DNA of 49,565 bases, counting the filler, from Jimgerdemannia flammicorona (taxonomy: Eukaryota): the NCBI GenBank assembly GCA_003990765.1. It is 2 parts of 2 records of this genome, joined end to end, with 100 filler letters (N's around TTAATTAATTAA, not from the genome) between each part and the next. Parts side by side here need not be neighbours in the genome. Positions count along the whole stretch, not along the records: positions 24,836 to 49,565 come from RBNJ01000935.1; 1 more part is not named here. The stretch is one strand, 5' to 3'. Made by a program: the position numbers and the translations under genes. Each line of letters starts with the position of its first letter. Position 1 is the first letter of the stretch. The notes beneath the pieces were generated by a model that made no database searches, was not told the origin of the DNA, and worked only from the letters and a program-made list of their open reading frames with translations. This document shows positions 22,651-49,565 of this stretch, in pieces.

Positions 22651-23249
22651 ACACTACAAACCAAGCACACCCTTTGCGCTCAAAATATATATGGAAGACG
22701 CCAATTTATCAATACTAGTTTTGACTCCCTTGCGCGCGGTTGTGGGTTTCACGTATTTTGGGTGTCATCTCCTTGGCGCGCTTGAACTAAATTTCAATGT
22801 CACGAACAATATGTTAAAATACCTTTGAATCTGTCTGTTTTTAATCTTAAGCTTAGAATAAAAAAGTGAAGGAGAGAGGTGTATGTAGAACAATATGCAA
22901 CTCATGCATGAGTTTTAACAGTAAATTGGCATGTTGGTACATAATAAATTATTCAGACAATAAGTTTTTTTTATCTCGGAAAGCAAATAATTGAGTCTAA
23001 TTAAGGTTGTAAGTAAGCTTAAATCAAACAGGATACTAGTTTGGGCACATAAGAAACACGAACTGACAGTTTGCACAATAAATAAATATCCTACAATGCA
23101 CCATCGGTTCCGTGCAAAATAAGATCGGGTTGCAATTTGTTCAGGTGAATATCTCCAACACGAGGAATTTGTGTTGGGATGGCAACCCAATATGCCGGCA
23201 CGTGACTTTACGCCCTAGATCAATATATAGCATTCATCAGGTTATGAGC

Positions 23250-24505: not shown

Positions 24506-24735
24506 TGTAATGTAGCGGACGCTTACTCTTGAAAGTACGTCGGATTTCTGTATCTTGAAAACTTGACTGTTCTGACTCTCGCAGAGTCTCTTGAAGTTGC
24601 AGGGAAGTGTGGGTGAGTTCGAAGTGTATCTGCCCGCAGGCTTACTAGTTCCTTTGCTATCTCTTTGCTTTGAACTATTTCGATCTGAGGTTTATTCACT
24701 CGAAGATACTGGGTTATTTATACAAGTTTGCTAGC
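24506..24735 (-). mobile_element. 3' end (TATA-R-U5) of a younger LTR, broken at the contig end
   Basis: Minus strand: TGTATAAATA, then AATAAA, ending GCGTCCGCTACATTACA; same layout as LTR-B; CpGs retained. Confidence 0.55.
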
Positions 24736-24835
24736 NNNNNNNNNNNNNNNNNNNNNNNNNNNNNNNNNNNNNNNNNNNNTTAATTAATTAANNNNNNNNN
24801 NNNNNNNNNNNNNNNNNNNNNNNNNNNNNNNNNNN
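24736..24835. other. Assembly gap with artificial six-frame-stop linker
   Basis: 44 N + TTAATTAATTAA (24780-24791) + 44 N. Confidence 0.95.
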
Positions 24836-25165
24836 TACTAAATAATGCCAGCCTTGGAACTTAGTAGTTTTAGTTATTGGAATTTATATTTAGCTTTATA
24901 CCTTAGCAACCATTGAATTATATTTTGTATAAATACCTCTCTTATTTCCTCTGAAATAAAGTTAGTTCTATCTGGTTCACTTACATACTTCCTTGCAAGC
25001 AATCTAAGAGATAACAAGACAGTTAAAGATAAGAAGTTTGAGGACTATAAGACCTTGGGAAGGCACTCCAATAAGAACTTGCTTATAACAACTTGAGTTA
25101 GTCTAAGAGATACACCTTGAAGAGAATCTGGCGTATTTGAAGGACTCAGCGACCACTACGTGACA
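24836..25165 (+). mobile_element. 3' end of an LTR-B copy nested antisense in the 3' end of gypsy copy 1
   Basis: TATAAATA, AATAAA and terminal GTGACA at 25165; first ~130 bp match ~395-525 in reverse complement. Confidence 0.65.
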
Positions 25166-25190: not shown

Positions 25191-28100
25191 CTAGTTGTTC
25201 AAGAAATCATATTCCTGAACTAGGTCGGTAGCATTCTGGAGATTGGTCTTAGGTTCTCAGGTTGCATCATGGATCAGATAACCTTTCCATTTGACAAGGT
25301 ACTCAGGGTGGTTCTTGTTGCCACATTTGTTGATGATCTGCTCAACTTCATACTCTTCTTAGTTATTAATAATAACAGGTGTAGGTGATTCAGTGGTCCA
25401 GTTGGGGAATAGCTCATCATTATTCTCATTGTATCACTTGAGATGTTGAACGTTAAAGACTGGGTGAATCTTAATGGTGTCTGGTAGTGCCAATTTGTAG
25501 GAGGTTGGAGAGACTTGTATAATGACTTCAAATGGTCCAATGAACTTGCTGTTCAGCTTTGTAGATGGTCTGTACTTGAGGTTGTCAACTCGGTATCCTC
25601 TGATGTCCAGTAGAACTTTTTCTCCAATATCAAAGGTTTCTTCTTGGTGGTATTGGTTAATATACTGTGACTGTTGTTCTTGAGCTCATGATAAATTCTC
25701 AATTGCAATCTGGCTTAGATTATACATTCGGAGTAGGAATTCTTCAATAGCTTTGACTGTGGAGGGTTCTTCAGTGGTACAGATAAGTGTTAAAGGGGTG
25801 TTTGGGTTTTGTCCAGTGTTGGCGAAGAATGGGGTCATTCCAAGAGAGGCTTGCTTGCTATTGTTATAGGCAAACTCAACTGCAGTAAGGTGTTCATGCC
25901 AGTCATCTTGTTTGTAGGAAACATAGTTCCTTAGTATTTGTTCCAGAGTTCAGTTCATTCTTTCAGTTTAGCCATTAGTTTCTAGGTGAAAGGCTGTGGA
26001 TAGTGCAAGTTTTGTTCCAAGGTGTGCATGGAGGGCTTTCCAAAAATGGCTGGTGAATTTTGGATCTCGGTCACTAACAATGATCTTAGGAAGACCATGA
26101 TAGTGGAAGATGTTGTCAAACAAGAGTGTGGCTATGTCTGGTGCTGTTGCAGTAGTGGTAGTTAGTACAAAGTGGGCTTGTTTGCTGAAATAATCCACAA
26201 AGACAACAATTGCATCTTTCCCATTCTTGATTTGGGGTAGTTGTACAATGAAGTCCATAGAGATTTGTTCCCAATTAGCAGATGGTACTGAGATAGGGTG
26301 AAGTAAGCTAGGTTTTGCTAGTGTTGAGAACTTATTTTGTTGGCAGGCATTACAGGAAGTGATGTAGGTCTTGAGCTAATCTGCCATGCGGGGCCAATAG
26401 AAGTTTCGGGAGATAACTTTGTAAAATTTATCAAATCCTAAATGTCCAGCTGTAGGGGCATCATGACATTCGAATAGGATAGTCCTTCAGAGGTCTCAGT
26501 TGTTTGGGACATACAGTCTATCTTTGTAGTAGATAGAGTTGTCCTTGAGTTGGTATTGATTGTACTGGGTATACTTGTCAGCATCATCACTGTTCAGGAT
26601 TTCTCAGAGTGCTTGAGCTTCCTTATCATCAACACATACTGCAATGACTTGTTCCATGATGGAGTTTGTAACCAAGGTGAGAGTTTGGATAACCTCTTCG
26701 ATTGGTGGTCTGGAGATTGCATTGGCAACAATATTTTCCTTGCCAGGGTGGTACTGGATTTTGTAATCAAAGTTGGTAAGGACTTTCATCCATCTGGCTT
26801 GCTTTCGAGAAAGGGTAGCCTGTGTCTTAATATTGACTAATGATTTGTAGTCAGTCAATATGGTGAAGTGTACTCCTTCTAGGTAGGGTCACCATTTGAT
26901 CAGAGTATCTACAATAGCTAGTATTTCCTTCTTATGAGTTGCATAGTTAATTTCGGCATCATTGAACTTGTGGGAGTGATAGGCAACAGAGTGTCCTTCT
27001 TGCATGAGCACTGCTCCAAGGGCTAGGTCAGAGGCATCAGTAGTGACTTTATAGGGTAGTGCTGGGTTTGCTGCTTGAAGTACTGGAGTGGTTATCAGGG
27101 TATCCTTTAGTGCTTGAAAGGCAGTATCTTGCTCAGGTCCCCAAGTTACAAGATTATTGAAGTCTTTCTCTTGTTTTATGGTCCAGGGTTGTTCTTGTTT
27201 CTTGCTGTACTTGGTTATTTGGGTGAGGGCAGTAGCAATTTTAGCAAAGTTGGCAACAAATTGCCTGTAATAGTTTGCTAATCCCAGGAATGACTAGAGG
27301 TCTTTTAGCTTCTTGGGTCTGGGCCAATCCTTGATTGCAGAGATTTTGCTGGGGTCTACTTTGATTCTATTTGGAGTGACAATGTATTCAAGAAATTGAA
27401 TTTCTTTCAGGAGAAATTTTCACTTGCTGAGTTTTGCAAAGAGTCAGTTTTCTCGGAGTTTCAATAGTACTAGTTCAAGGTATTCAAGATATTCCTCCAG
27501 GGTTTTGCTGAAGACTAGGATGTCATCAATGTAGACAACAACAAATTTGTCCAGGTATGGATGCAGAATGGTATTCATCAGTGTCTGGAAGGTTGCTGGA
27601 GCATTAGTTAAGCCAAAGGGCATAACCAGGAACTCGAAGTATCCATAGCGAGTTCGGAAAGCTGTCTTGTAGATGTCTTCTTCTTTTATAGCAATTTGCC
27701 AATAGCCATTTCGTAGGTCAAAAGAGCTCATGAATTGTGAGTTGGTAAACCTATCGAATATTTCATCGATCCTTGGTAGTGAGCAACAGTTCTTGATGGT
27801 CTGTTCATTGAGATTATAGTAGTCAATACACATTCACAGGTCTCCTCCTTTCTTGACAACAAAGAGGACTGGTGCACCATAGGGTGATACACTGGGTCTG
27901 ATGAATCCTTATTCTAGGAGTTCGTCGATTTCCTTCTTGAGTGCATCAATTTCTCTTGGAGACATGTGGTAGATTGACTTGAAGGCTGGTTTGGCATCTG
28001 GGATAGTCTTGATAGTATGGTTTACTGCTTATTTGAGAGGTAGGCCTTTCGAGAGCTTCTTTGGAAATATGTCCCGGAATTTCTGGAGTAGTGGTCTGAC

Positions 28101-31100
28101 ATGACTGTTAACTTTGGAGAAATCTTCTTCAGAGTTCTTGGGTTCTCCTTTGGATGGATGGATGGAGATGGCGAAGAGAGGGCATTTCTTGGCCAATTTC
28201 TTGAGTTGTAGTTTGTTGATGTGGGTGATCTTTGGTCCAGGTCACTAGAATTAAGTGGGTCCTTTTTGCCTTGCAGTTTGAAGTTGTGGCATCCTTTCTT
28301 GATGGTCAGAGAATGGTTTACCCAATCGATCATAGGGTTCTCTTGTTTTAACCACAGGGTTCCAAGAATGATTTCGTTGTCAGGGAGTGGTACAAATTGA
28401 AGAGTAACATATACTCAGTAGTCACTAATTCGGAAAGGTAGATTGTGGACTTCTTTGCTAATAACATGTGAGGTTCCATCAGCTAGAGCAACTACTTGAG
28501 TTTGCTATACTGGGGAGGTAAAGACCTTGAGTCTATTGGCTATCTCTTCATTGATGAAGTTGCCTGAGGCACTACTGTCTATTATAATCTTGACAGGTGC
28601 TCCATTGACAAAAGCCTTAAGGGTGAGCAGTTTGTCTGATCCAATGGTGGTGATTTCAGTTGTAGGAGCTTTCCTTCTGTTGGTTCTTCTTTGAGCCAGT
28701 TCATTGATACAAGAGAAGTAATCATCAATCATTCAGGAAGAGTACATTCCAATGCCATGAGGGCATCAGCCACTTGGTACATATCCATCTTCAATCTTCT
28801 TGTAGAATTGTTCTTCTTTGCTCATAGTATGTTGGGCTGGGGCCTTGTTCAATGAGCCAAATCCTTTGGATCCTCGGATGGTGGGCAGTAATTCAGGGAC
28901 TTCCTTAACTGTCAGGGTTGACTCAATTTTTTCGAATAGGATCTGGGCGATGCAGAAGCCAATAGGGATCTTGAAGGGTATCCAACTGTGGTTTCGAATG
29001 AGGATAATGATTTTGCCTATGTAATCTTCATCAATGACTCCTCCTTCTACTGAGAGTCCTTTCAGTGCCAGGCTGCTGCAACAGCATATTCTTCCAACAT
29101 GTCCTTTAGGGATTTGGATACTAATTCCTGTGTAGACTTGTTTGACTTCTCGGTTGGAAACTGTAGCTTCTTCAGCTGTATATAGATCATATCCAGCTGC
29201 TTTCTGACTTTCTTTGATTGGGGCCTTAGTAGTTTGTCTTAACTTGACAAAGTCTAGTATTCTGGTGGTCAGGTTGTTGAGGTGGTGTAGTGTGGTAACA
29301 GTTGCTCATATTGCTGTTCGGGGTTTTCAGTTAGGGCAGGCACTGGCCATGTGTCCTGTCTTTCGGCAATAGAAGCATGCTTTGCTTCTTCGAAGTTCAT
29401 TCCTTTTGACTTCAGTAAGTTTCTTAAAGGTACTTGGCTGGGTGGGTTCATGATTTCTGGGTGTCCAAGAGGTGGATGTGGAGAAAGCTCGAGATGCTTC
29501 ATGCTTGGGTTCTTCTTTCTTTGTCCAAGTCTTTTCCTTGTTGTTGAATTGCCTTCAGGGCAGAATTGGTCCAGCTGTTAGAATTCACTTAACCATAGTC
29601 TTGATTCTTGCCAGGCACCATTGTTGGTGATCACAACCAACTGGACAGCCTTGTTCTTGGATTTTTCTAGTAAGCCATTCAGGCAGGACATCGAATAAGT
29701 GGTCTGCTCTTGTACCATTTCATGCTTCATCATTGGCAATGTATCCTAGGCCAATAGTGTTCAGAAGTAACTCGAGTTTTGTACAGAAGGTTTCGAATTC
29801 TTCTTTGCTATATATATTGAATTTGAGGCTGTGGAGTTTTACTTGAGATTCAGCAATCATGGTTTTGCTGCAGTATTGAGCAATCATGAGTTGTTTGAGT
29901 CCAGGGGCTGCAGGGTGGACTCCATATCCTGGGGCATTGTTTGCTGCATTCTGAGCAACTACTGTAGGTCGGGTATCCCATGTGAGGGGTTTTTCAGGAA
30001 GGGTTCACCACCATTCTTCAGTAGGTCTTCGGAAGAATGTAACAACTTGGCGGACATAGGCTGTAGTGGTAGCAAAGAGTTGTTCTAGAGTGTGGTCTTG
30101 ATTGTTTGTCAGAATGTGGTCAGTAACTCGCTCATTAGTCTATTGATTGGCTTCGAAGTTGGTGTCAACTATACTAATGAAGCTTTGGACTTCTTGTATA
30201 GTACCATTAAAGGTAGGTAGACTCAGATTTTTGGTAGGTCAGGTCTGTTCAGCTAAGGCAGTAATGGTTGCTACCATTATGGCTACCTGGGCTGTGAGGT
30301 CAAGAATCTGTTAGTTCACCATATTGTTTACTGGAGGTGGTTGGACTGCTGGTAGTGGTGTTACTAGTACTACTTGAGGTACTGGTGTAGTGTATGATAG
30401 AGTTCTTTGGGTCTGTGTAAGTTGCTGGAGTAGTAGTTGTAGATCTGGAGTAAGGGCTTGATAGATAGCTGTTTGTTGTTATGTAGGTGTATTCTGTCCT
30501 GATGGGAGTGCATCTCTTTTGGTGGTGTATCTGGGATCAAATTCAGTGAGATACTCCTCCTCTTCTTCGGCTTGGTCCTTGTGTAATTGGGTTTGCTTGG
30601 CATCAAAGTAGATAGAATCAGTTGTATATCTTATTTCAGATGGACTTAATTCAAAGTCAAGTCCAGGTTTGGTATTGGTTTCAGATTCAGGTAGGGCTGT
30701 AGCAGGGTCTGCTTCAGGTTCAGGGTTAGGTAGTTGATGAAGGGTTTCTCTTGCTTCTTCTTTAAGAATATGGCAGGCCTTGCTGTTCTGGAACCAGTAG
30801 TATAATGCAGTCTTGGTCCTGGTATGGTGAAAATCAGTAGAGTTGAGCTACTTAGCTATAGAGGCTTGGGCTTTGTGAGGGACTAAGGCTAGAAAGACTG
30901 CTGCTGGTTGTCCTAGGTCACTCGGATTTGTGGAGCTGACAAAACTCTTATTGAGAAGAGTAAAGAAGGCTTCAATAAGACCTTCTTCGTCTTGACTTGC
31001 TGGGTATAGTGCAAGGAGTTCAGTGAATAGGGTTTCGCCTATTTGTTGGTTTAATTGGAGTACTTCTTTCTTTGAATGAAGTTTGTCCCACTTGTTGCAG

Positions 31101-31244
31101 ATGTGGAGGTCAAATTGTCCTTGTACATCAGGTTCAATTCTCTCTAGATTGTCAGATGGTTCGGATAAATTCCAGTTCAGAGGTTGGGCTTTATACCAAC
31201 TTGTAGGAATTCACAGAGCGGTTTGTAGTAGGGTGAGGAAGCAT
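25191..31244 (-). pseudogene. Inactivated gag-pol polyprotein, ~2000 codons
   Basis: ATG 31244; CCHC CFYCRKTGHMASAC (~29336-29380); protease IIDSSASGNFI (~28550-28590); [28 protein letters not shown] (~27430-27960); RNase H TDAS; integrase SMDFI, IVSDRDPKFTS (~25800-26480); chromodomain EYEVEQI..YLVKWKGY (~25191-25365). Stops mostly CGA>TGA, CAA>TAA, TGG>TAG/TGA. Confidence 0.93.
28850..29260 (-). pseudogene. dut: dUTPase domain within the polyprotein (copy 1)
   Basis: All five trimeric dUTPase motifs: AAGYDL, GRICCCSS (GxIxxRSS), GGVIDEDYIG, IAQI, RGSKGFGS; same frame as the zinc knuckle and the protease. Confidence 0.92.
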
Positions 31245-31268
31245 CTTGAAGCAGAATTGGATTATAAA

Positions 31269-31280
31269 CCACTGCTACCA
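31269..31280 (-). promoter_or_regulatory. Primer-binding site, probably initiator tRNA-Met
   Basis: TGGTAGCAGTGG 3 nt inside the LTR end; TGGTAGC is complementary to the GCUACCA 3' end of fungal/animal tRNA-iMet; decayed copy at 38329-38340. Confidence 0.75.
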
Positions 31281-31283
31281 AGT

Positions 31284-33303
31284 TGTAAGAGGGTTGCTTT
31301 TTAGAGTAACTATTATGTAGTTCTGGAAAGGTTTTCTGGATATTCTGGATGTTCTGGAAGACTGTTTTCTTATGGTCAAGATCAATTTTATATAGAGTAC
31401 ATCCTCTACGCTTATTGATTTCAAGATTGGTTTGATGTCTCAACTAAAGTTCTTTTTTCAGACTAGTTCTGGATGTTCAGGATTTTCTGTATTTCAGGAA
31501 GTTCAAGAAACTAAGACCAGCTTAGTTGAATTGACATATTGCTGCAGACAATACCCAATTAAGAAATTTCATAATGGGGTTAGGAGTGGGACCTAACAGG
31601 GAGCAGATTTACTTAAGAGTGGTTTGTAGATTATTGAATAGGTTTATTTACTATTCATGATATTGCTATACTAGGAGTAGTTGTGTAAAGGAATATTGTG
31701 GGGAAGTGTTCAGGAATGTTCTTGTGTGTTTGAGTCTGAGATTCTGAGGTCTGGGGGAGGGGGTATTTATACTAGTGAGGGGCTATCTGGACTATGCTGA
31801 GTATGGATGTAGCACTAAGTGCCTTGCTGAGTCAGAATGCAGTCATATAGTACAAGTGTGATCTGATATATCAAGAGATTGTCTGACTGCTGAGTCAGTT
31901 CACAGTCACGTTGTACAATACTAATCTAACTATACTATGACTGCTAGGCTATTTATGGGTTTAGGTGCTGTCTGGATAGTCCTCAATGACATCACCATCG
32001 ATGACATCATCTCTGATGAAGTAGTCATCTAGGAAGAGTGGTTCACAGATTACTTCTCCTTGTTCACTGAGGTAGTAATACATTGGGACTTCATCTCCGT
32101 CCCACAGGATAGCATCGTCTGTCTCATAGGCTGGATAAGGTATTGGTGGATGAAGGATGGATATATTGTCTTTGCTTTCATTGGATTCACTGTCTGCATA
32201 CCTTCTGTAGGTTACAGCACTATGAGTCACGGGGTTGTAGTAAGCTGGTGGCTGTGGTTCATATTGCTCATACTCAGGTTGGTTCAATCTTGAGGGTTGT
32301 CTGGAGGTACAGGTTGTGTTCTCTGGTCTCTTCATTGTAGTTGAAGTAATCAGGGGTGAATGCGGGTTGGTATTCGTGCCAGTGGTCATTGTCCCAATAA
32401 GTCTCATATGTAGTTATGAACTGTTGTAAGTTCATCGGCAAGGTTGGCAGAGTGATCAGAGTTGGTAGAGATCCTTGGCTAGAGGTCATGTCAGTATCAG
32501 AGGGATCATTATCTTCTGCTTCATCTTCATTGAAGTGGATTATATCGTAGATGTCCTTTATGGTGTATCCAACTTGGGGCATTTGCAGGATGTGATCATT
32601 GGGGTGTGGAAAGGTTCTGTCTGTGGTTTCAATGTACTCGAGGTACTTGTGGTTGAGTTCTTGTATCATATCATCAATTTGCTCATAGGACAGAGTAGCA
32701 ACTATTTCAGCTGTGGTAACTCAGAGGCAGAGAATAATGGTGCTATACTCATAGAAGAGTTCTCGATATTTGTGGGTAATGAGCTTCTGGTGTTGAGACA
32801 TCTCAATAATGTCTATATCATAGTGGTGTTCGATTATGTCTTCCAGGAGGCGGCCGATCTGGTAGTAGCTTGAGATTTGTCCGATTCGGTGGACCTTACT
32901 AAGCATGTTCAGAGTATTTCATTAGGCTTCTATAAAGTAGAGGAGTGCTAAACTATGGATATTCATAAGGGGCAGAGGGGGTATGGCTCCATTGACAATG
33001 GCATTCCAAATGTCAGCACAGATACAGGTATAGATCTCGGTAGTCATGTTTGTGTGTTTGGAAGTTATGGTTGTTGTTTGTTTTGGTTCTCTGATTTGGT
33101 ATGTCTCAGTGCTCGGTATATATGCATTTGATCCTGATTGGTAAGATTCTGTTTGTATAAATCTTGTGTTCTGTGACTTTGTATTGACTCAGCTTTGTGT
33201 GCTGTGACTTCAGTTTGACTCAGCTTCGTGATCAAGCAGGTGATTTCCAGATTTGTTCAGAGATCACATGTAATTTCAGTGGCTTGGAAATTGTGCACTT
33301 ACA
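31284..33303 (-). mobile_element. 5' LTR (family A), 2020 bp
   Basis: Termini TGTAAG..CTTACA; TATAAATA 31764-31771; AATAAA 31643-31648; colinear with the solo LTR at 47282-49279. Confidence 0.9.
31961..33047 (-). pseudogene. LTR-A U3-encoded ORF, ancestral ~365 aa, acidic and Tyr-rich, unknown function
   Basis: MTTEIY..ADIWNAIVNGAIPPLPLMNIHSL..DDVIDGDVIEDYPDST*; joins ORF-track pieces 32721-32906, 32274-32669 and 31961-32407; one 11-bp deletion near 32280 relative to the solo LTR. Confidence 0.75.
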
Positions 33304-33454: not shown

Positions 33455-36400
33455 TGTAAGAGGATTGCTTTTTAGGGTAACTATTATATAGTTCTGAAAG
33501 GGTTTTCTGGAAGTTCTAGATATTCTGGAAGACTGTTTTCTTAAGGTTAAGATCAATTTCATATGGAGTACATCCTCTATGCTTATTGATTTCAAGATCA
33601 GGTTAACATCTCAACCAAAGTCCTTTTTCAGACTAGTTCTGGATATTTAGGATTTTCCATATTTCAGAAAGTTTAAGAAACTAAGACCAGCTTAGTTGAA
33701 TTAGCATATCGCTACAGACAATATCCAATTAGGAAATTTTGTAATAGGGTTAGAAGTGGGACCTAATGGGAAGTAGATTTACTTAAGAGTGGTTTGTGGA
33801 TTATTAAATAAGTTTATTTGCTATTCATGATATTACTATACTAGGAGTAGTTGTATAAAGAGATATTGTGGGAAAGTATTCAGAAGTGTTCTTGTATATT
33901 CAAGTCTAAGATTTTGAGATCTGAGAGAGGGGGTATTTATACTAGTGAGGGGCTATCTGGACTATGCTAAATATGGATATAGCACTTAGTGCCTTGCTGA
34001 GTTGAAATGCAGTCACATAGTACAAGAGTGATCTGACATATCAAGAGATCATCTGACTGCTGAGTCAGTTCACAGTCACATCATACAAGGCTAATCTAAC
34101 TATACTATGACTGCTAAGCTATTTATAGGTTTTAGACACTATCTGGTTAGTCTTTGATGATATCACTATTGATGACATTATTGCTGACAAAGTCTGAGCA
34201 GTTTTCTGACTTCTGACATCATCAGTTTTAAGGTGTCATCACTTCTATCTCTTACAAGATTAAGGCTATCCTTGGTGGCAGTGGTTGTATAAGGATAATA
34301 GGTCTTGATTCTCTTTTTTTTTGGTCTGCTGGTACATTTGCAAGGACTGGCCATTCTCATCTAGGGTGAGGGCTCCCAATGTCACAGCTAGGAGTTTGAA
34401 CCTCTTGGAAATGATATTTTCTGTAATCTGAGGCAATTTCTAGTAGTAATATCTGTCATATGGATGACTTGAGATTGGTTTTGATGATGTCAGCTTTCTT
34501 AAGTTCAGATGAAGTGTCCGTCACTCTCTAATGGAGGTGATATAGATAGAGCAAATGGAGTTATTTAAATATGTTTTGCTTCTGCTAAGTAATGAGGTCT
34601 TATATACATAGTTGCAGTATATCTTGGTCTTGAGTTGATAAGTGCAGTTCGTGAACCTTTTGGTAGATGAGATAGGGTTCTTCTTATCTTGATTTGAGTT
34701 TGATACTTTTGGTTTCCTTTTGTAATAGTACAGTATACCAAACTAGTTATAGTGGTTCAGAGTTAGTCTTATGATTATAGTACTTCTTCTAGTATTCTTA
34801 TATCTTGGCAGTAGATTCTCATACTTGCTGGCATATTTTGTGTAACCAGATAATCTCTTCAGTAACTTGTTTTGTAGTCTTACATGTGGTTTCCAAATTA
34901 GTTCTGAGGATGCTATGTGATTTTAGTGGCTTGGAGGTTATACACTTATAACTCTCCCCTTCTTAGCTTTTGATGTCCTCGTTGGGGCCTTCTAATTTGT
35001 TCTGGTGTTGTTATACCATTTGGATGGTTCTTGTGGCTGTATTTGTTAAGGATTTGTTCAACTTTGTATTCTTCTTGGTCATTAATAATGACAGATATAG
35101 GTAGTTCTGTGGTTTGGTTCAGAAATGTGTCTTGGATCTTCTGGAGTAGTGGTCTGATACAGCTGTTAACTTTGGAAAAGTCTTCTTCAGAGTTCTCAAG
35201 TTCTCCTTTGGATGGACAGATGGAGATAGCAAAGAGAGGGTATTTCTTGGCTAATTTCTTGAGTTGTAGCTTGTTGATGTGGGTGATCTTTGATCTAGGG
35301 TCACTAGAGCTGAGTGTATTCTTTTCATCTTGTAGCTTGAAGTTATGGCATCCTTTCTTAATGGTCAGAGAATGGTTTACCCAATCGATCATAGAGTTCT
35401 CTTGTTTCAACCATAGAGTTCTAAGAATGATCTCATTGTCAGGAAGTAGTACAATTTGGAGAATAACATGTACTTGATAGTCACCAATTTGGAAGGGTAG
35501 ATTGCAGACTTCTTTGCTAATAATATGTAAGATTCCGTCAGCTGTGGTGACTGCTTGAGTTTGTTATACTGGAGAGGTGAAGACCTTGAGTCTGTTGACT
35601 GTTTCTTTATTGATGAAGTTGCCTGAGGCACCACTGTCTATCATAATCTTGACAGATGCTCAGTTGACAAAAGCCTTAAGTATAAGCAGTTTGTCTGATC
35701 CAATGGTGGTGATTTCAGTTGTAAGAGCTTTCCTTCTGTTGGTTCTTCTTTGAGTCAGTTCATTGATATAAGAGAAGCAATCATCAATTATTCAGGAAGA
35801 GTATATTCCAATACCATAGAGACATCAGTCACTAGGTACATATCCATCTTTGATTTTCTTGTAGAATTGTTCTTCTTTGCTTATGGTAGGTTGGGCTGGG
35901 GCCTTGTTTGATGAGCCAAATCCTTTAGATCCTCAGATGGTAGGCAGTAGTTCAGGGACTTTCTTGACTGTCAGGATTGACTTGATTTTCTCAAATAGGA
36001 TCTGGGCAATACAGAAACCAATAGGGATCTTGAAGGATATCCAACTATGGTTCTGGATGAGGACAATAATTTTGTCTGTATAATCTTTGTCAATGACTCC
36101 TCCTTCTACTGAGAGTTCTTTCAATGCTAGACTACTGCAACAGCATATTCTTCCAACATGTCCTTTAGGAATTTGGATGCTGATTCCTATATAGACTTGC
36201 TTGACTTCTCAGTTGGAAACTGTAGCTTCTTTGGCTGCATACAGGTCATATCTAGCTGCTTTTTGACTTCATTTAGTTGGGGTCTTGGCAGTTTGTCTTA
36301 ACTTGACAAAGTCTAGTGTTCTGGTGGTCAGGTTGTTGAGGTGGTGCAGAGTGGTAACAGTTGCTCATATTGCTGTTTGGGGTTTTCAGTTAGGGCAGGC

Positions 36401-39040
36401 GCTGGCCATGTGTCCTGTCTTTCAGCAAATAGAAGCATACTCCACTTCTTCAAAGTTCATTTCTTTCTCCTTTAGTGAGTTTCTTGAAGATACTCAGCTA
36501 GGTGGGTTCATGATTTCTGGATGTCCATGAGGTGGATGTGGAGGGAGCTTGGGATACTTCATACTTGGGTTCTTCTTTCTTGGTCTAAGTCTTTTCCTTG
36601 TTGTTGAATTGTCTTTGAGGCAGAATTGGTCCAGCTGTTAGGATTTGCTTAACTATGGTCTTGATTCTTGCTAGGTACTATTGTTAGTGATCACAACCAA
36701 CTAGGTGGCCTTATTCTCAGATTTTTCTAGTAAGCCATTCAGACAGAGTATTGAATAAATGGTCTGCTCTTGTACTATTTTGTACTTTATCATTGGCAAT
36801 ATATCCTAGACTAATAGTGTTCAGGAGTGACTTAAGTTTTGTACAGAAGGTTTCAAATTCTTCTTTACCATATATATCGAATTTGAGGTTGCAGAGTTTT
36901 ACTCAAGATTTGGCAATCATGGTTTCACTATGGTATTGAGCAATCATGAGTTGTTTCAGTCCAGGGGCTGCAGGATGGGCTCCATATCCTGGGGCATTAT
37001 TTGCTGCATTTTGGGCAACTACTGTAGGTTGGGTGTCTCATGTGAGGGGTTTTTCAGAAAGGGTTCACTACCATTCTTTGGCAGGTCCTCAGAAGAATGT
37101 AACAACTCAGCAGACATAGACTGTAGTGATAGCAAAGAGTTGTTCCAGAGTGTGGTCTTGATTGTTTGTCAGAAGGTGGTCAGCAACTCACTCATTTGTC
37201 CATTGATTGGCTTCAAAGTTAGTATCAACTATACTAATGAAGCTTTGGACTTCTTGTGCAGTACCATTGAAGGTAGGTAGGCTCAGATTTTTGGTTAGTT
37301 AGGTCTGTTCGACTAAGGCAGTAATAGTTGCTGCCATTATTGCTACTTTGGCTATAAGGTCTAGAATCTGTTGGTTTGCTATATTGTTTACTGGAGGCAG
37401 TTGGACTGCTGGTAGTGGTATTACTGGTACTACTTGAGGTATTAGTGCAGAGTATGATGGGGTTCTTTGAGTCTGTATAAGTTGCTGAAGTAGTAGTTGT
37501 GAGTCCAGAGTAAGGGCTTGATAGATAGCTGTCTGTTGCTGTATTGGTGTATTTTGTCCTGATGGAGGGGTATCTCTTTTGATAGTGTATCCGAGATCAA
37601 ATTTACTGAGATACTCCTCCTCCTCTTCAGTTTGATCCCTGTGTAATTGGGTTTACTCAGCATCAAAGTAGACAGAATTAGTTGTATATGATTTCAGATA
37701 GACTTAATTCAAAGTCAAGTTCTGGTTTGGTATTGGTTTCAGATTTAGGTAAGGCTGTAGTAGGGCCTGCTTCAGGTTCGGGGTTGGGTAGTTGATAAAG
37801 GGTTTCTCTTTCTTCTTCTTTAAGAATATGGCAGACCTTGCTGTTCTGGAATTGGTAGTATAATGTAGTCTTAGTTCTGGTATGGTGAAAGTCAGTAGAG
37901 TTGAGCCACTTAGCTACAGAGACTTGGGCTTCATAAGGGACTAAGGCTAAAAAGACTACTGCTGGTTGTCCTAGGTTACTTGGATTTGTGGAGCTGACAA
38001 AACTCTTGTTGAGAAGAGTAAAGAAGGCTGCTATAAGACCTTCTTCATATTGACTTGCTGGGTGTAGAGCAAGGAGTTTAGTGAATAGGGTTTCACCTAT
38101 TTGCTGATTTAACTGGAGTACTTCTTTCTTTGAATGAAGTTTGTCCCACTTGTTGCAGGTGTAGAGGTCAAATTGTCCTTATATGTCAGATTCAATTCTC
38201 TCCAGATTGTCAGATGGTTCAGAATAAATTCCAGTTCAGAGGTTGGGCTTTATACCAACTTGTAGAAATTTGCAGAGGGGTTTTGTAGCTGAGTGAGGAA
38301 GCATCTTAAAGCAGAATTGGATTGTAAACCACTACTACCAAGTTGTAAGAGAGTTGCTTTTTAGGGTAACCATTATATAATTCTGGAAGAGTTTTCTGGA
38401 AGTTCTGGATATTCTGGAAGACCATTTTCTTAAGGTCAAGATCAATTTTGTATAGAGTATGTCCTCTATGCTTATTGATTTCAAGATCGGGTTGACATCT
38501 CAACCAAAGTCCTTTTTCGGACTAGTTCTGGATATTCAGGATTTTCCATATTTCAGAAAGTTCAAGAAACTAAGACCAGCTTAGTTGAATTGGTGTATTG
38601 CTGTAGACAATACCCAATTAGGAAATTTCATAATAGAGTTAGGAGTGGGACCTAATGAGAAGTAGATTTACTTAAGAGTGGTTTATAGATTATTAAATAG
38701 ATTTATTCGCTATTTATAATATTACTATACTAGAAGTAGTTGTGAAAAGAGATATTGTGGAGAAGCATTCAGAAGTATTCTTGTGTATTTGAGTCTGAGA
38801 TTCTGAGGTCTGGGGGAGGGGGTATTTATACTAGTAAGGAGCTATCTGGACTATGCTAAATATGGATGTAGCACTTAGTATCTTGCTGAGTCAGAATGCA
38901 GTCACATAGTACAAGAGTAATCTGACATATCAAGAGATCATCTGACTGCTAAGTCAGTTTACAGTCATATCATACAAGGCTAATCTAACTATACTATAAC
39001 TGCTAAGCTATTTATAGGTTTAGGCACTGTCTGGTTAGTC
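33455..39040 (-). mobile_element. Gypsy copy 2, internally deleted: gag-dUTPase-PR fused to a partial chromodomain
   Basis: 3' LTR 33455-34950; PPT AAGAAGGGGAGAG 34952-34964; gag ATG 38304; dUTPase ~35910-36320; RT-RH-IN absent (junction ~35120, IQDTF|LNQTTELP..EEYKVEQI); 5' LTR 38344-39040 cut by a LINE poly(A) tail. Confidence 0.9.
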
Positions 39041-41849: not shown

Positions 41850-42520
41850 TATTATTATTCTGAATATTAATATTATATATAAGTACTATATATTATACTT
41901 GTTTATATCATTATTATTTATTGTAAATACTATTTCAGAAATTGAATATCATCATTATTTTGATCTATATAACTATTATTAGTATGGATAGTATTTATAT
42001 GTATGACTATATTGGCTTTTATTACTATAGTTATTATTATTATTATACTATTATATATATTACTTATAATAATTATTTTTACTACATTTCTCTTTATTTT
42101 TTTGTAGTATTTATATTTATAGTATTTATATTTTCTACAGAAATCAAAGTTATTTTCAAACTTAGTCTAATAGTACTTTTGATCTTATTTATAAGAGCCA
42201 TAGAAGGCTTTCTCATTACTGTTATCTCTGTTAGATATAGATACTCATAAATACTGATCTTATTATTAGCTATATTACTGATTTCATTAGTTATATTAAT
42301 CTTATAAGATTTATCAATTTTATTACTAATTATATATATGTATAAATACTAATTGTATTTTTACTGATACTATTGATCTTTTTGGTATTTTCTATAGTCT
42401 TATTGTTGAAATTTTTATTATTATATATCTTAATAATATGACTTAGATATATAATTCTTAAAACTATATTATCTTTAAGATATATATATATTACTTGATA
42501 TATAAAAATATAAGCAATCA
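41850..42520 (-). mobile_element. Decayed remnant probably related to the copia piece at 23250-24505
   Basis: Minus-strand AATGAGAAAGCCTTC..ATAAGATCAAAAG (~42175-42217) resembles AATGAGAAAATCTTT..ATAAGATAAAAAG at ~23969-24010. Confidence 0.3.
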
Positions 42521-42879
42521 ATAAATAATTCTACTACTCTTCTCTACTCTATATTTCTAATAAAAGATTATAAGTCCTACTTAGTAGCTAAAAAGAAATA
42601 TCTCTCTAAGACTATATATATATTACTTTATATTAAGATATCATAAGAGACAAATTAAGAAGCTAGTATAAATATATTAAATATAGTTATAGTAGATATA
42701 GATACTCTCAGAATAGATATAATAATAATTACAGTCTCTATGATAAGTATAATTATAGTCAAGAGGTCAATCTCAATCTTTGATAGTAAAAATTATACTA
42801 TTTAGATATTCTATATAAGCAATCTCTAGGAAGAATATAGCTTAGTAGAGTATACAAAACTGTAAGTATAGATTCAAGA

Positions 42880-43165
42880 TTATAATATTGTAAATAATTA
42901 CTAGTATCTTAATAATTGTCTTCTATCACTAGAGAGGACTTTATAATTCCCTTAAATACCTAGGTAGGCACCTTTATCATAATTGCCTTCTATCACTTAA
43001 GAGGATTTTGTAATTGTCTTAACTCTAGAGAGAACTTCAGTGATTGCCTCAATACTAAGGAGGATTTTATCTGCTATCTGAGAAAACTTATAATTATCTC
43101 AAACACCTGAGTGGGTATCTTCATAATTATCTCTACTACTAGAGAGAACTTTATTATTGCCATTA
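42880..43165. repeat. Degenerate ~30-40-bp tandem repeats
   Basis: Recurring ATAATTG(T/C)CT..ACTAGAGAG(G/A)ACTTT units. Confidence 0.6.
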
Positions 43166-44769
43166 ATAGACTTTTTTTTTACAATGAAACTATATGTTCT
43201 ATTGCCAGAAGATTATTATAGAGATATCTATTTTGATATTCTGACTCATACCAATATTTATTAGTATAATATATAAACTAGAGATATTCTAGCTACTAAC
43301 TGAGACTCATAATCTTTATTATATAATAATGAATTTATAAGAAACTGAATAGAAAAAGTAATTTATTCAAAATATATAATATATATTTTATATATTATTG
43401 ATAAATAATATAAAACTAATAGAATAGTATATAGTATAAAGTTATATATCTATATATTGAGTTACTATTCCAATATATAAAAACTGAAAAATATTATAAA
43501 ATAAGATAATAGACCACTCTCAGTAAGGCCAAATAGCTATTCTGCTTTTTTATCAATAATTATATCTATATTATTATAAAGAGACTATATGTTCTCTTCT
43601 ATATATAACTCTAAGTTCTCAATTACTTTTACAGAATATCTTCTAAAAATATTACTGATAAATATTAGAGTAATATTATCTTTTAAATAGTCCAGTATAT
43701 AGTTCTTTAGTTTAATAAATATATAAAGTTTAATATAGAAGTAAATGAGTAGATTTAGATAAAGATAAAAAGAATATAACAGTTTATTATATGTATAGTA
43801 ATAAGTTATTGATAATTCTAATAAAATTTACAATAAAATTATCAACAGAAATTATAATAGAATTTTTACAAAAAAAATTGATATAAGTTATATACTATAT
43901 AGTATAACTATATATAGATATATATATATACTTAGTATATTATATTTAGCTATAATTTTACTTTATATAAATATCGTCTATACTGAGTATATTATAACTT
44001 CAGCTCTATTTTTTTTACTTAAGAATAAAGAAGTATTCTTATTAAAGAACTCTTAGATCTAACTTATTAATAATTCTGAGCCTAATCAACTTAAGATATA
44101 AATATATAATCTTTATCTAGTATAAGACCCCAAAAGTAATACTTAGACTATATCTCAGTAATAAATACTTAGAGCTTAATACTTCCTTATAAGAGCTCAG
44201 AACTTAAAGACAATAGTCTATTCAGATTATTTGTAATAAATTAATTTTATTAGTATATAGTATGATGTATAATATGAAATAAAAACAGGAAATAGATATT
44301 TAATTATGATACTTAAATCTGATTTTCTGATTTATTATAGTGTAGAAATTACTTTTACTATAGATATTATATTTAAAATATTATCAATGAAACTGTTGTT
44401 ATTTTTATAAACTTTAGATAGAATTTTATATAAGATTCTATCTGAGATATCTATTTGAAATTTCACATGAAATAACTTATTACTTAGTCTCATATTTAGT
44501 AGCAGAATTAGCAAATATATATAAATAACTTAGTATTTTAGAGTGAATAAATAAAAGTCAGTTCAGCTCAGTTATATATTCTTCTCCTTCTCTTTATATA
44601 AAATCTAGAATCCTACCAACTTACTAAGATCTATGCCTACTACATTATAATTTAGTATCTATTAGCTAATAATTTAAGATGAATTCTCACTTTTAAGCTA
44701 AAAAATGAACAACTACTACTATCCAATTTTGAAGATATATGGATCTTCATATAGACTGTTATATATAGT

Positions 44770-46290
44770 ATTTATCTCTATACCATCTGCTGTTAATTGA
44801 TTGTTTCAGTTATCAGTCTTGTTTCTGTGAACTATTAGTATTGAATAATAGATGCTCTATAAAGGCCTATATTATTAAGTTAATAGTCAGATCACTCCTT
44901 AATTTAAGAGACAATATTATAAAAATTAATCACTAAATATGCTAAACAAACTACTATGCAAATAGACTGCTATATAGACTACCACCTAAAGAAAACAATA
45001 TATAGACTACTGTATAGACCATCATCTGATTTTTGAAGACATTGTTTATCTCTATACTATCTGCTGTCAATTGGTTATTCTAGTTATCAGCCTCATTTCT
45101 GTAAACTATCAGTATTGAATAATAGATGCTTTGCAAAGGACCACATTGTTGAGTTAATAGCCAGATCACTTTTTAGTTCAAGAAATAATATTATAAGAAT
45201 TAATTACTAAATATATTGAATAAACTGCTATATAAATAGATTACTATATAGACCATTATCTGATTTTTGAAGACATTATTCATCTCTATACTATCTGCTA
45301 TTAATTGGTTATTCTGATTGTCAGCCTCATTTCTATGAGCTGTTAGTATTGAAGAATAGACACTCTGTAAAAGACTGTATTATTGAGTTAATAGCTGGAT
45401 CACTCCTTAGTTTGAGAGATAATATTATAAGAATTAATTATTAAATATATTAAACAAACTGCCATATAAATGGACTGCTATATAGACTATCACCCAAAGA
45501 AGATAAACAAACTACTATATAAATAGACTGCTATATAGACTACTATCCAAAGAAAACAATATATAGACTGTAATATGGACAATTGTCACCTAATTTTGAA
45601 AAAGACAAACAGACTGTTATATAGATCACCATTTAAAGAAAACAACATATAGACTATTATATGGACTATTACTAGATTTTTGAAGATATTATTCATCTCT
45701 GTCCCATCTGCTATTAATTGGTTGTTTCAGTTGTCAGTCTCATTTCTATAAACTATTAGTATTGAACAATAGATGCTCTGCAAAGGATAGTATTATTGAG
45801 TTAATAGCTGAGTCACTTCTTAGTTCAAGGGATAATATTATAAGAATTAATTACTAAATATACTAAAAAAAACTGCTATGCAAATAGACTGCTATATGGA
45901 CTTCTATTTAAAGAAGACAAATAAACTACTATATAGACCACTACCTAAAGAAGACAAACAAACTGCTATATAGACCATTGCTACCCAATTTTGAAGAAGA
46001 TAAACAAACTACTATATGGATCACTACTTAAAGAAAACTACTACTATATAGACCATTGCCATCCTGTATTATATAATTTGCCATTATCTGACTTTTGAGA
46101 ATACAACCTATTACCTATACTTGAAAAGTCTAGAGGCCATCCTGTAATATATAATTTGCCACTATCTGACTTTTGAGAATATAACTTATTATCTACAATT
46201 AATGAGCCTGGAAGCTGTCTTGTGATATATAAATACCACCTATTATACAAACTGCTACCCTATTAAAGATATTATATACAAACTGTCATC
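44770..46290. repeat. Complex tandem repeat: four ~235-410-bp units with variable subrepeats, then a 78-bp duplication
   Basis: TCTCTRT..ATCTGCT.T.AATTG recurs at ~44775, ~45049, ~45283 and ~45695; subrepeat AAACTRCTATATRGAC..AAAGAA varies in copy number; TTGCCAYTATCTGACTTTTGAGAATA at 46078 and 46156. Confidence 0.8.
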
Positions 46291-47281
46291 TAACTTTTGA
46301 TGATATTCCAAATTAATTATTTGAAGAATACCATTCATGAAATATCAAACTACTCTTCTTTTAATTGTAGAATTAAAAGACATCATATATAAACAGTTGG
46401 GATACCCTTGCAACACTGGTGGTCAGGAGAGGTCTTGGCCTTGTGGATTTCCCTAAGAGATTGCACTGCTTGCAAGTCTGATGGTTAAAGAGAGCAGCTG
46501 AACTGCAAGGAGGGGGTTGGGTGCCTCTGCTGCAGAAGGTGTGGGAGATGAGAACCTCCCCCTGAGGGTCCTCAGGAGATTTACTCTCTTTGTTAGGGCT
46601 CAATGGAATTCAGTGGCTACAGTTTAAGGGCTTTTGGTGGAGAGTGATCGATGGAGTATACAGAATTGGTCTGCGCTGGCAGAGCAATGAGAGGGAGGTA
46701 TTATGGGACCCTAGTATGTGGCAATGGGATAGACTACTACTGGGGGGTGCTCCACTTGCTGCTTTTGATATTGGGGATAGAGTGGAGTGTCAGCAGGGTC
46801 TTGGCCAGGATCTTTGACTGAGCAGTTGGCAGATGGTCAGGATCGGTGAGGAGTGGGACTGGGTAGATATCTGGTCTTAGAGTGCTGAGGTATGGCAGTG
46901 GCTTCCCCCCAAGTTCTAGGTGGTGTGGTGGCGAATGCTGCAGAGGAATGTCATGCTGAATTTCTGCACTGGGCATCTGGTGGATGGTGGTTGTTTCGAT
47001 TGTGAGGAGTGTTATAATGTAAGGCAAGCTGGGGGTTTGGTGCAGATGCCAGAACATTGGCTGAGAGAGTGTGAGGTTTTGGGAGACTTTTGGGTTGAAA
47101 TAGGAAATAGACTGAGTGTGGAGCATAGGCCAGCAGGTAAGGGGGATCACTGAGAGGACTTGAGATCTCAGCTAGTGGGGGGGGTGGGTGATAGTTGGCT
47201 CACTGTCAGGTGGGTGTTAGCAGTTTGGGTGGGATTAGCAGGATATTGGCTATTTGTATTTGAGGAGGGGTGGTAGATAAG

Positions 47282-49279
47282 TGTAAGAGGGTTGCTTTTT
47301 AGGGTAACCATTACGTAGTTCTGGAAAGGTTTTCTGGATATTCTGGATGTTCTAGAAGACTGTTTTCTTATGGTCAAGATCAATTTCGTATGGAGTACGT
47401 CCTCTATACTTATTGATTTCAAGATTGGGTTGACATCTCAACCAAAGTCCTTTCTCAGACTAGTTCTAGATGTTCAGGATTTTCTGTATTTCAGGAGGTT
47501 CAAGAAACTAAGACCAGCTTAGTTGAATTGGCATATCACTGCAGACAATACCCAATTAGGAAATTTCATGAGAGGGTTAGGAGTGGGACCTAATGGGGAG
47601 CAGATTTACTTAAGAGTGGTTTGTGGATTATTGAATAGATTTATTTGCTATTCATGATATTGCTATACTAGGAGTAGTTGTGTGAAGGGATATTGTGGGG
47701 AAGTATTCAGGAATGTTCTTGTGTGTTCAAGTCTAAGATTCTGAGGTCTGGGGGAGGGGGTATTTATACTAGTGAGGGGCTATCTGGACTATGCTGAATA
47801 TGGATGTAGCACTAAGTGCCTTGCTGAGTTAGAATGCAGTCATGTAGTATAAGTGTGATCTGACATGTCAAGAGATTGTCTGACTACTGAGTCAGTTCAC
47901 AGTCATGTCATACAAGGCTAATCTAACTATACTATGACTGCTAGGCTATTATGGGTTTAGGCACTGTCTGGATAGTCCTCAATGACATCACCATCAATGA
48001 TATCATCTCTGATGAAGTAGTCATCTAGAAAGAGTGGTTTGCGGATTACTACTTCATCTCTATCTTACAGGATAGCATCATCTGTCTCGTAGGCTGGATA
48101 AGGTGTTGGTGGATGAAGGATGGGTGTATTGTCTTCGCTTTCATTGGATTCACTGTCTGCATACCTTCTATAGATTACAGCACTATAAGTTGCAGGATTG
48201 TAGTAAGCTGGTGGCTGTGGTTCATGTCATTTGTACTCAGGTGGTGGAGTGGTTGGTTCAATCTCGAGGGTTGTCTGGAGGTACAGGTTGTGTTCTCTGG
48301 TCTCTTCATTATAGTTGAAGTAATCAGGAGTAAATGCGGGTTAGTATTCGTGCCAGTGGTCATTGTCTCAATAAGTCTTGTATACAGTTATGAACTGTTA
48401 TAAGTTCATCGGCAAGATTGGCGGAGTGATCAGGGTTGGCAGAGATCCTTGGCTAGAGGTCATGTCAGCATCAGAGGGATCATTGTCTTCTGCTTTGTCT
48501 TCATCGAAGTGGATTATATCATAGATGTCCTTCATGGCATATCCAACTTGGGGCATTTGCAGGATATGATCATTGAGGTGTGGGAAGGTTCTGTCTGTGG
48601 TTTCGATATACTCGAGGTACTTGTAGTTGAGTTCTTGTATCATGTCATCGATTTGGCCATAGGACAGAATAGCAACCATTTTGCTGATAGTAACTTGGAG
48701 GCAGAGAATAATGGTACTGTACTCAGAGAAGAGTTCTCAGTGTTTGCAGGCAATGAGCTTCTGGTGTTGAGACATCTGGGTAATGTCTGTATCATGGTGG
48801 TGTTCAACCATGTCTTCCAGGAGGTGGCTGATCTGGTAGTAGCTTGAGATTTGTCCAATTCAGTAGACCTCACTAAGTATGTTCAGAGCATTTCATCGGG
48901 CTTCTACAAAGTAGAGGGGTGCTAGACTATGGATATTCATGAGGGGCAGAGGGGGTATAGCTTGGTTGACAATGGCATTCCAAATGTCAGCATGGATATA
49001 GTTGTAGATCTCAGTGGTCATGTTTGTGTGTTTGAAAGTTATAGTTTGTTGTTTGTTTTGGTTTTCTGTTTCGACACATCTTGGTGCTTGGTATATATAC
49101 ATTTGATCCTGATTGGTAAGATTCCATTTATGTAGATCTTATATTCTGTGACTTCGTATTGACTCAGCTTTGTATACTGTGACTTCGGTTTGACTCAGCT
49201 TTGTGATCAAGCAGGTGATTTCCGGATTTGTTCAGAGGATGATGTATAATTTCAGTGGCTTGGAGGTTGTGTGCTTACA
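47282..49279 (-). mobile_element. Solo LTR (family A), 1998 bp, 5-bp TSD
   Basis: TGTAAG..CTTACA flanked by ATAAG at 47277-47281 and 49280-49284; no PBS or PPT adjacent. Confidence 0.95.
47957..49021 (-). pseudogene. U3-encoded ORF in the solo LTR (355 codons, one frame)
   Basis: ATG 49021 to TAA 47957; interrupted only by stops explicable as C>T/G>A changes; in-frame 33-bp deletion relative to copy 1. Confidence 0.75.
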
Positions 49280-49565
49280 ATAAGTCTGTAGAAGAAGGTT
49301 TTAAGGTGAGAGAAGCTGTTGAGGGATCTGATGACTGGATGGTAGATAGGTTGGGGTCCTTCAGGGGGGTGATAGCAAGGTTTGATAGTGAGGATATGTG
49401 AACAGAGTGGTGGGAGAGTGGGGATTATATTTGATAGAGTAGTGTTTCATCGAGAAGGGGTAGAGGAGAGGGGCCCCTCTAGGGGAATTGGATAAGGGGT
49501 GGGTTCACTGTACTTATGGGATAGATGAGTATAATAAAGGAAGAGTCCAAGTGACTATAAATAAA

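Follow-up and report, generated by a model that had tools for sequence, protein, structure and literature searches.

We analysed a 49,565-nt stretch of DNA (the window) from the Jimgerdemannia flammicorona assembly GCA_003990765.1, and found that the long terminal repeat (LTR) of a Ty3/gypsy chromovirus in it contains a protein gene that, judged from its sequence, was functional in an ancestor. The gene is an open reading frame (ORF) of 365 codons in the sense direction of the element. The window holds two full LTR copies, a solo LTR (copy S) and the 5′ LTR of an element that we call A (copy A); both derive from source elements with an intact gene, and in both the gene was broken later by C-to-T hypermutation, like gag-pol. 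The LTR of this chromovirus family carries the complete gene between its first ~250 nt and TATAAATA, and we consider it probable, on balance, that the gene is an accessory gene of the element. Coordinates count along the whole window, filler included, and are collected in Table 1.

The LTR and its internal reading frame

Read on the minus strand, copy S starts with TGTAAG and ends with CTTACA, and ATAAG is found at both flanks; it thus has the TG..CA ends and the short target-site duplication of a Ty3/gypsy LTR. A BLAST comparison of the 1998-bp unit with the window returned four places: the unit itself, one full copy and two partial ones. The full copy, copy A, is followed after its end by a tRNA-type primer-binding site, TGGTAGCAGTGG, which we take to be a match to the 3′ end of initiator tRNA-Met. 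On the same strand, the internal region of element A gave Pfam matches in the order RVP_2, RVT_1, RT_RNaseH_2, rve, SH3_Tf2-1 and Chromo (E = 2e-12 for Chromo), and a dUTPase is located between the gag knuckle and the protease. No 3′ LTR of element A was found in the window, and the element stops after the chromodomain. Beyond that point (25209-24400, minus strand) lies a simple repeat of stop-codon triplets, followed by AT-rich DNA. A purine-rich tract, as expected before the 3′ LTR of such elements, was found in a second, deleted element, B (before 34944). Because of the target-site duplication and the ends, the primer site beside copy A, the purine tract and the chromovirus domains, the 2-kb unit is the LTR itself, as the original prediction had it, and 47282-49279 is a solo LTR of a minus-strand, dUTPase-bearing Ty3/gypsy chromovirus. 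The best full-length relatives of its reverse transcriptase (RT)-RNase H region were metagenome proteins (45-50% identical); the named RT matches were from plants, with identities of 33-50% (55% over one third of the query in one row) that are inflated by long fused models. Rfam gave no match anywhere in the window.

A sense frame upstream of a TATA box had been proposed for this LTR, together with a second copy that restores the same protein with partly different lesions, and both proposals held. In copy S the frame runs over 354 codons and is interrupted by TGA at codons 43, 54, 95, 218 and 265, and by TAA at codons 208, 227 and 319. Copy S also has a private in-frame deletion of 33 bp (between 48051 and 48050); these letters are present in copy A and in P0002, one of two database proteins related to the product, and with them restored the full intact ORF measures 365 codons. 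Copy A encodes the same protein; its frame is shifted by a deletion of 11 bp (between 32280 and 32279), downstream of which it is open for the last 105 codons (31964-32278) up to the shared stop. The 11-bp deletion is private to copy A, because contigs from other sources, with loose ends at 32277-32279, retain these letters. Codon 43 is the sole stop common to both copies, and it is Trp in P0003, the other related protein. Since the lesions otherwise differ, the sources of S and A both had an open frame.

The stops had been described as deamination-type. This description does not discriminate by itself, since every stop codon sits one transition from CAA, CAG, CGA or TGG, and any stop is therefore one transition from a sense codon. 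What did stand is that, at each of the 10 distinct stop positions (8 in S and 2 further ones in A), some other copy or a homologue has R, Q or W. Copies S and A differ by 200 substitutions, of which 188 are transitions, most of them in CpG and CpA contexts, and the observed/expected ratio of CpG is 0.20-0.26 in the element versus 1.07 in non-repeat DNA of the window, so C-to-T hypermutation spares the non-repeat DNA here. The S/A spectrum is also strand-skewed: C/T differences before A number 47 on the sense strand, compared to 20 complementary ones (G/A after T), with 45 and 39 changes in CpG context, and this skew points to hypermutation beyond plain CpG decay. The two LTRs of one element are identical at insertion, and those of element B already differ by 10% over 701 nt; it follows that the 12% by which S and A diverge arose almost entirely by decay after insertion.

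Coding signature and encoded protein

Decay of the frame does not exceed that of gag-pol in the same element. In copy S the frame contains 8 internal stops plus the terminal one, whereas the two remaining sense frames contain 16 and 35. The gag-pol of copy A has 33 stops in 2058 codons (gag 13/694, dUTPase-protease 6/500, RT-RNase H 7/467 and integrase-chromodomain 7/397). Expressed per 100 codons, this amounts to 0.8 stops for the ORF in A (3/362), 2.3 in S (8/354), 1.6 for gag-pol and 4.5-10 for the off-frames. Codon frequencies of the ORF correlate with those of gag-pol at 0.64-0.66 in frame versus 0.27-0.31 when shifted, and the ORF shares with gag-pol a G-rich first codon position.

Searched with a profile of the protein, 1.84 billion representatives yielded two genuine relatives and one noise match. 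P0003 (128 aa) is open, covers the N-terminus with the same MTTEIY start, and has W, R and R at stops of S. P0002 (247 aa) is open as well, covers residues 115-354 at 61-66% identity (61% to S), and, where S has five stops within this range, reads Q, W, Q, Q and W. Both sit on contigs of ~1 kb; in searches for the DNA that encodes them, scans of metagenome contigs returned nothing and viral contigs gave no usable locus. Within the window, the two proteins are matched by copies S and A only. The noise match, P0004 (E = 1e-5), was rejected as a homologue: it is a repeat protein, and none of its Pfam hits includes a passing stretch.

Copy A and P0002 are identical in 161 of 243 columns and positive in 204. 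Their replacements are BLOSUM62-positive in 52% of cases, compared to 29 ± 4% in a neutral simulation, a value reached in none of 500 runs. When the open parts of copy A were substituted neutrally down to 61% protein identity, they stayed stop-free in 3-4 of 1000 runs; this figure is subject to ascertainment bias, as protein databases admit open frames only, and the BLOSUM test is free of that bias. Identical columns between copy A and P0002 are not significantly clustered (463 of 5000 shuffles). From the decay level of the frame, its codon usage, the open relatives and the conservative replacements, we therefore read the sequence as an ancestrally functional protein gene in the LTR.

An acidic, Tyr-rich product had been predicted, and the composition agrees (Asp+Glu 17%, Lys+Arg 4.9%, Tyr 8.4%). 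An AlphaFold model of residues 3-127 has 5 helices at a predicted local distance difference test score (pLDDT) of 58, suggesting a helical N-terminal half. The C-terminal half (171 residues, among them 35 acidic ones, 9 basic ones, 16 Tyr and 22 Pro) consists, by comparison with P0002, of conserved short blocks between variable acidic linkers; the blocks include QPAFTPDYFNYNE, AYYNPATYSAV, HPPTPYPAY and PLF.D.YFIRDD. This half is probably disordered, given that the models show no confident structure (pLDDT 30 for the full-length AlphaFold model, 0.39 for the Atlas model of P0002). The family had not been recognised from the sequence, and the searches gave the same picture: no Pfam family matches, nothing in the PDB sequences scored below E = 0.5, the Atlas held no relative, and the element's own gag shows no similarity (E = 0.85). 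Foldseek against PDB and BFVD returned nothing below E = 0.8, with a low-confidence query model, so that this result is no evidence either way. No membrane segment was predicted. By these searches the product appears to be an orphan protein that matches no known family.

The original prediction also read two PPxY motifs in the product. PPEY and PPAY are indeed present in the LTR family, and the loose contig ends show the letters of PPPEY in other copies, in a part of the protein without confident structure where such motifs could be accessible. The reading holds less well outside the family, as the corresponding letters in P0002 are PLSEY and PLAY. A late-domain role through binding of Nedd4/Rsp5-type ligases would be lineage-specific at best. 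The make-up of the protein is most likely that of an adaptor or regulator, and seems unlikely for an enzyme or a structural protein.

Possible use of the frame by the element

Whether the ORF lies in the unique 3′ (U3) part of the LTR depends on the position of the promoter. TGACTCA, the TATA box TATAAATA and AATAAA are present in all four LTR copies, and they fall within the best-conserved block of the S/A alignment; for these reasons TATAAATA is taken as the core promoter and the ORF as part of U3. TATAAATA sits 189 nt 3′ of the ORF stop codon. The sense ORF lies wholly inside the LTR and upstream of this core promoter, which is recognised by motif, as does the sag gene of mouse mammary tumour virus (MMTV). 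Upstream of the ORF is a second group of promoter-like motifs, including a pair of TGAGTCA motifs that are both kept in copy A, and TATATATA, which reads CATATATA in copy A.

If the ORF is an accessory gene of the element, separate from gag-pol, then each LTR could be a self-contained unit made up of the TGAGTCA pair, CCAAT, TATATATA, the A/C-rich leader and the ATG. The upstream module could drive a ~1.4-kb message ending at the LTR's own AATAAA. In HIV-1 (human immunodeficiency virus 1), a cap-proximal poly(A) signal is bypassed; likewise, the signal near the cap may here be passed over by the genomic RNA and used by the longer ORF message. Because the promoter-like motifs, the ORF and the poly(A) signal are all inside the LTR, the ORF could be expressed from any LTR, whether 5′, 3′ or solo, and the copy in the 3′ LTR would also travel in the genomic RNA. 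The product would most likely act by binding host factors, either by its acidic-aromatic tail of activation type or by the ligase-binding motifs. Taken to its full extent, this makes each LTR an autonomous 2-kb gene cassette for a regulator or adaptor, with solo LTRs seeding expressible copies, and with a tail that activates the LTR promoter, a role likened to that of retroviral transactivators, or that ties particles to a ubiquitin ligase of the host. We put this full version forward as a speculation that is unlikely to be right in its entirety.

Solo LTRs were expected to disperse the ORF, and copy S, with its target-site duplication, does contain the whole frame. The ORF segment is present in two of the four LTR copies within the window. 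The 3′ LTR of element B is a variant that matches the 1998-bp unit at 33455-34193 and over 57 nt at 34883-34939, and so has its first ~62 nt and last ~740 nt in common with the ORF-bearing LTR. Between these, 34194-34882 is 689 nt of unrelated sequence, without a match elsewhere in the window, that replaces ~1195 nt including the ORF body. The variant retains the last ~59 nt (~20 codons) of the ORF, which suggests that it lost the ORF body and that the ORF was not a late insertion. Outside the window, the LTR is covered by short contigs from three runs (two from soil metagenomes, one from an organism) and from one small run of another organism. In the richest soil-metagenome run all 13 bins of the ORF are covered, at a summed depth of ~900, compared to ~530 for the adjoining internal region and ~2300 for the R-U5 part (repeat and unique 5′), sums that are rough figures and not copy numbers. 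ORF-bearing LTRs are thus abundant beyond the window, and there are probably also LTRs, or relatives, that do not contain the ORF.

Several other accounts of the frame were weighed. A chance open frame in noncoding, A/C-rich repeat DNA is refuted, within the reach of this analysis, by the sense codons at all stop positions, the codon usage and the BLOSUM test, and we give it next to no weight. The antisense frame in register is also stop-poor (4 in S), which would suit a chance origin, but its Val/Ile/Phe/Trp-rich translation is the usual mirror of an acidic frame, with few stops because TTA, CTA and TCA codons are rare in the sense frame; besides, the homologues are open with conservative replacements, and the frame combines coding periodicity with a codon usage like that of gag-pol. 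Very improbable, too, is an origin from another mobile element nested in an ancestral LTR. U3 is modular, in line with such an origin, as the two LTR versions differ between the shared ends, yet the segment has no terminal repeats, target duplication or transposase- or RT-like domain, the right breakpoint of the variant falls inside the ORF and not at the end of an element, and the variant is no empty site, having other sequence in that place. It has somewhat more to recommend it, while still being improbable, that the ORF lies in a very long R or leader and not in U3, with TATATATA as the genomic promoter and the ORF as the first cistron ahead of gag. The well-formed module of two TGAGTCA motifs, CCAAT and TATATATA at 71 nt before the ATG would fit this arrangement. 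However, the variant LTR, which is without the module and the ORF, keeps the downstream motifs, the TATAAATA block is the best-conserved part of the LTR, and translation of gag would require reinitiation past a 365-codon cistron and ~700 nt.

The strongest competitor is a passenger gene: an ancestral LTR would have captured a host gene or retrocopy and copied it unused, and the conservation would reflect selection on the host lineage, including P0002. This is possible, and we doubt it. It would account for an orphan protein with only two relatives, both on ~1-kb contigs, for an ORF-less LTR variant on a copy that still transposed, and for the neutral-looking differences between S and A. On the other hand, the ORF was intact when two independent copies inserted, and so had survived many rounds of copying by an error-prone polymerase. 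The full set of promoter-like motifs with a start codon, all within the LTR, also speaks against a passenger, as does a codon usage like that of gag-pol. The last ~20 codons kept by the ORF-less variant imply that the gene was lost there, rather than never present.

The reading that we prefer, an accessory gene of the element, has points against it as well. The comparison covered two ORF copies, both of them dead, and two homologues. The codons that differ between S and A (37 synonymous, 54 non-synonymous and 9 involving a stop) look neutral, as expected of decayed copies, and their distribution over the codon positions (41/26/51) and the synonymous share (37/100) fit transition-only neutral decay. 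Selection was tested on a single homologue, P0002; should this be a gene of the host, the signal would be silent on the use to the element. The PPxY motifs are not conserved in this 61%-identical homologue. The U3/R borders and both promoters are candidates read from motifs. The ORF is not needed in cis, the variant LTR sitting on a deleted, non-autonomous copy, and the R-U5 depth of ~2.5 times that of the ORF may mean that there are many related LTRs without it. Finally, in the small run, guessed to be RNA and of unconfirmed nature, the ORF depth is below 10 in 13 of the 14 bins at 31857-33074.

That same run reaches a depth of 400-1500 in U5 at 31422-31682 and 0 in the adjoining gag leader. 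No conclusion was drawn from this, since the run consists of contigs and the cover does not extend into gag; the U5 piece may also occur in some other abundant repeat or in a small transcript.

Setting in the window and relation to known elements

Element B (33455-39040) is a deletion derivative. Its similarity to A ends at 35122 (corresponding position in A, 28064), and past this junction nothing is recognisable before the start of the chromodomain, so that RT, RNase H and integrase are missing; its LTRs are 90% identical. Its 5′ LTR is cut by a poly(A)-ended element (39041-~42000, minus strand) with a G+C fraction of 0.49-0.53, a C-rich plus strand and a GC skew to -0.48. The 3′ tail of this element consists of AATAAAGGAGTCCAAGAGACTATAAA and then an A run, and resembles the last 40 nt of the window (49526-49565, plus strand). 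Its ORFs have no Pfam match, and it probably belongs to a non-LTR retroposon family.

Three tandem units of ~2.55 kb with 64-87% identity occupy 12132-18951, where CpG shows no depletion (observed/expected ratio 1.07). Their ORFs are long and Ser/Thr/Pro-rich, with weak Podoplanin-type matches only, and the array may be a host gene array for a repeat protein. The regions 23001-25000 and 42001-46232 are AT-rich (G+C fraction 0.20-0.28), like hypermutated repeat DNA; they include a copia-type gag fragment at 23690-23998 (Retrotran_gag_2, E = 3.5e-5) and ~270-nt tandem repeats at 44685-46232.

Table 1. Coordinates of the LTR copies, the LTR-internal ORF and associated motifs. LTR positions are numbered along the minus strand of copy S, beginning at the start of the LTR.
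Feature	Window coordinates	Strand	LTR position	Remarks
Solo LTR, copy S	47282-49279	minus		1998 bp; ends TGTAAG..CTTACA
Target-site duplication ATAAG, left	47277-47281	.		5 bp; flanks copy S
Target-site duplication ATAAG, right	49280-49284	.		5 bp; flanks copy S
31-bp tandem duplication	49142-49204	minus		2 copies, 90% matches; upstream of ORF
TGAGTCA, two copies	49191-49197, 49160-49166	minus	83, 114	in the 31-bp duplication; both kept in copy A
CCAAT	49112-49116	minus	164	
TATATATA	49092-49099	minus	181	71 nt 5′ of ATG; candidate ORF promoter
ORF start ATG		minus	259	preceded by A/C-rich leader
LTR-internal ORF, copy S	49021-47957	minus	259-1323	354 codons + stop; 8 internal stops
PPEY motif	48233-48244	minus		copy S; removed in copy A by 11-bp deletion; PLSEY in P0002
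PPAY motif	48203-48214	minus		copies S and A; PLAY in P0002
ORF stop codon		minus	1321-1323	
TGACTCA	47888-47894	minus	1386	in 4/4 LTR copies
TATAAATA	47761-47768	minus	1512	candidate core promoter and U3/R landmark; in 4/4 LTR copies
AATAAA	47640-47645	minus	1635	candidate poly(A) signal; 123 nt 3′ of TATAAATA; in 4/4 LTR copies
LTR end		minus	1998	
5′ LTR of element A, copy A	31284-33303	minus		2020 bp, full, with ORF; 88% identity to S over 2034 columns
LTR-internal ORF, copy A	33047-31961	minus		same protein as S; stops at codons 42, 43, 109
Primer-binding site TGGTAGCAGTGG	31269-31280	minus		3 nt (ACT) past LTR end at 31284; tRNA-type
Element A internal region	25209-31268	minus		gag with CCHC knuckle, dUTPase, protease, RT, RNase H, integrase, SH3, chromodomain
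3′ LTR of deleted element B, variant	33455-34944	minus		purine-rich tract before it
Element B 5′ LTR remnant	38344-39040	minus		U5, R and promoter part; cut by poly(A)-ended element at 39041

Retrotransposon LTRs are regarded as control regions without coding function. To our knowledge, proteins encoded in U3 are known mainly from a handful of vertebrate retroviruses, and the extra genes of retrotransposons from the internal region. The sag gene of MMTV is an ORF wholly in U3, upstream of the core promoter and thus present in both LTRs. The ORF described here is likewise a sense ORF of a few hundred codons inside the LTR, which the genomic RNA would contain at its 3′ end. However, MMTV is a vertebrate retrovirus and Sag a membrane glycoprotein superantigen, whereas the present protein is acidic and largely disordered by prediction. 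The nef gene of HIV and SIV (simian immunodeficiency virus) is a 3′-terminal accessory gene that overlaps U3, and its product is an adaptor built from short linear motifs on a small folded core. Nef could serve as a working model for the ORF protein as a motif-built adaptor, with the differences that nef starts in the internal region and only overlaps U3, and that the two are not homologous. Neither Pfam, the PDB sequences nor Foldseek, the latter with a low-confidence model, gave any sequence or fold homology to Sag or Nef. The ORF would thus resemble the U3 genes of MMTV and HIV by position, without being a member of their families.

Additional ORFs (aORFs) of unknown or borrowed function have been described in LTR retrotransposons of plants and animals (PMC7264820), such as the ORF3s of bdelloids (PMC5408684). 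The aORFs in the parts of these sources consulted are found in the internal region, either ahead of gag or behind pol, whereas the present ORF is wholly inside the LTR, as the solo copy shows. A phrase search of the available text of the plant review (Vicient and Casacuberta 2020, PMC7264820) found none of four phrases that would place them in the LTR. The literature searched on ORFs in LTRs, subscription journals aside, yielded work on retroviruses, including MMTV sag, and no case of an LTR retrotransposon whose LTR contains a gene.

Gypsy chromoviruses with a dUTPase have been described from fungi in the sections consulted of PMC2864245, namely PosPlaTy3 of Postia placenta and elements of Phanerochaete and Tuber. 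PosPlaTy3-3 has its dUTPase at the N-terminus of Pol (PMC2864245), a position like that in element A, and both have a chromodomain after the integrase. In contrast to element A, no LTR-internal ORF is described for the PosPlaTy3 type in those sections, and the nearest RT-RNase H relatives of element A are 45-50% identical. Rotifer elements have a dUTPase without a chromodomain, according to the part of PMC5408684 consulted. Because dUTPase chromoviruses are described from fungi (PMC2864245, same sections) and hypermutation spares the non-repeat DNA of the window, a fungal origin of the chromovirus is plausible.

If the ORF is an accessory gene of the element, a chromovirus of a soil eukaryote, then the placing of such genes in U3, a habit of retroviruses, would have arisen outside them too. 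Solo LTRs, which usually outnumber complete elements, could then carry genes, and annotation pipelines that mask LTRs would hide a class of proteins. Should each LTR even act as an autonomous cassette, the chromovirus would be a 'complex' LTR retrotransposon outside retroviruses. The product would be an orphan, motif-rich protein, and its partners in the host could shed light on how elements of this kind interact with it.

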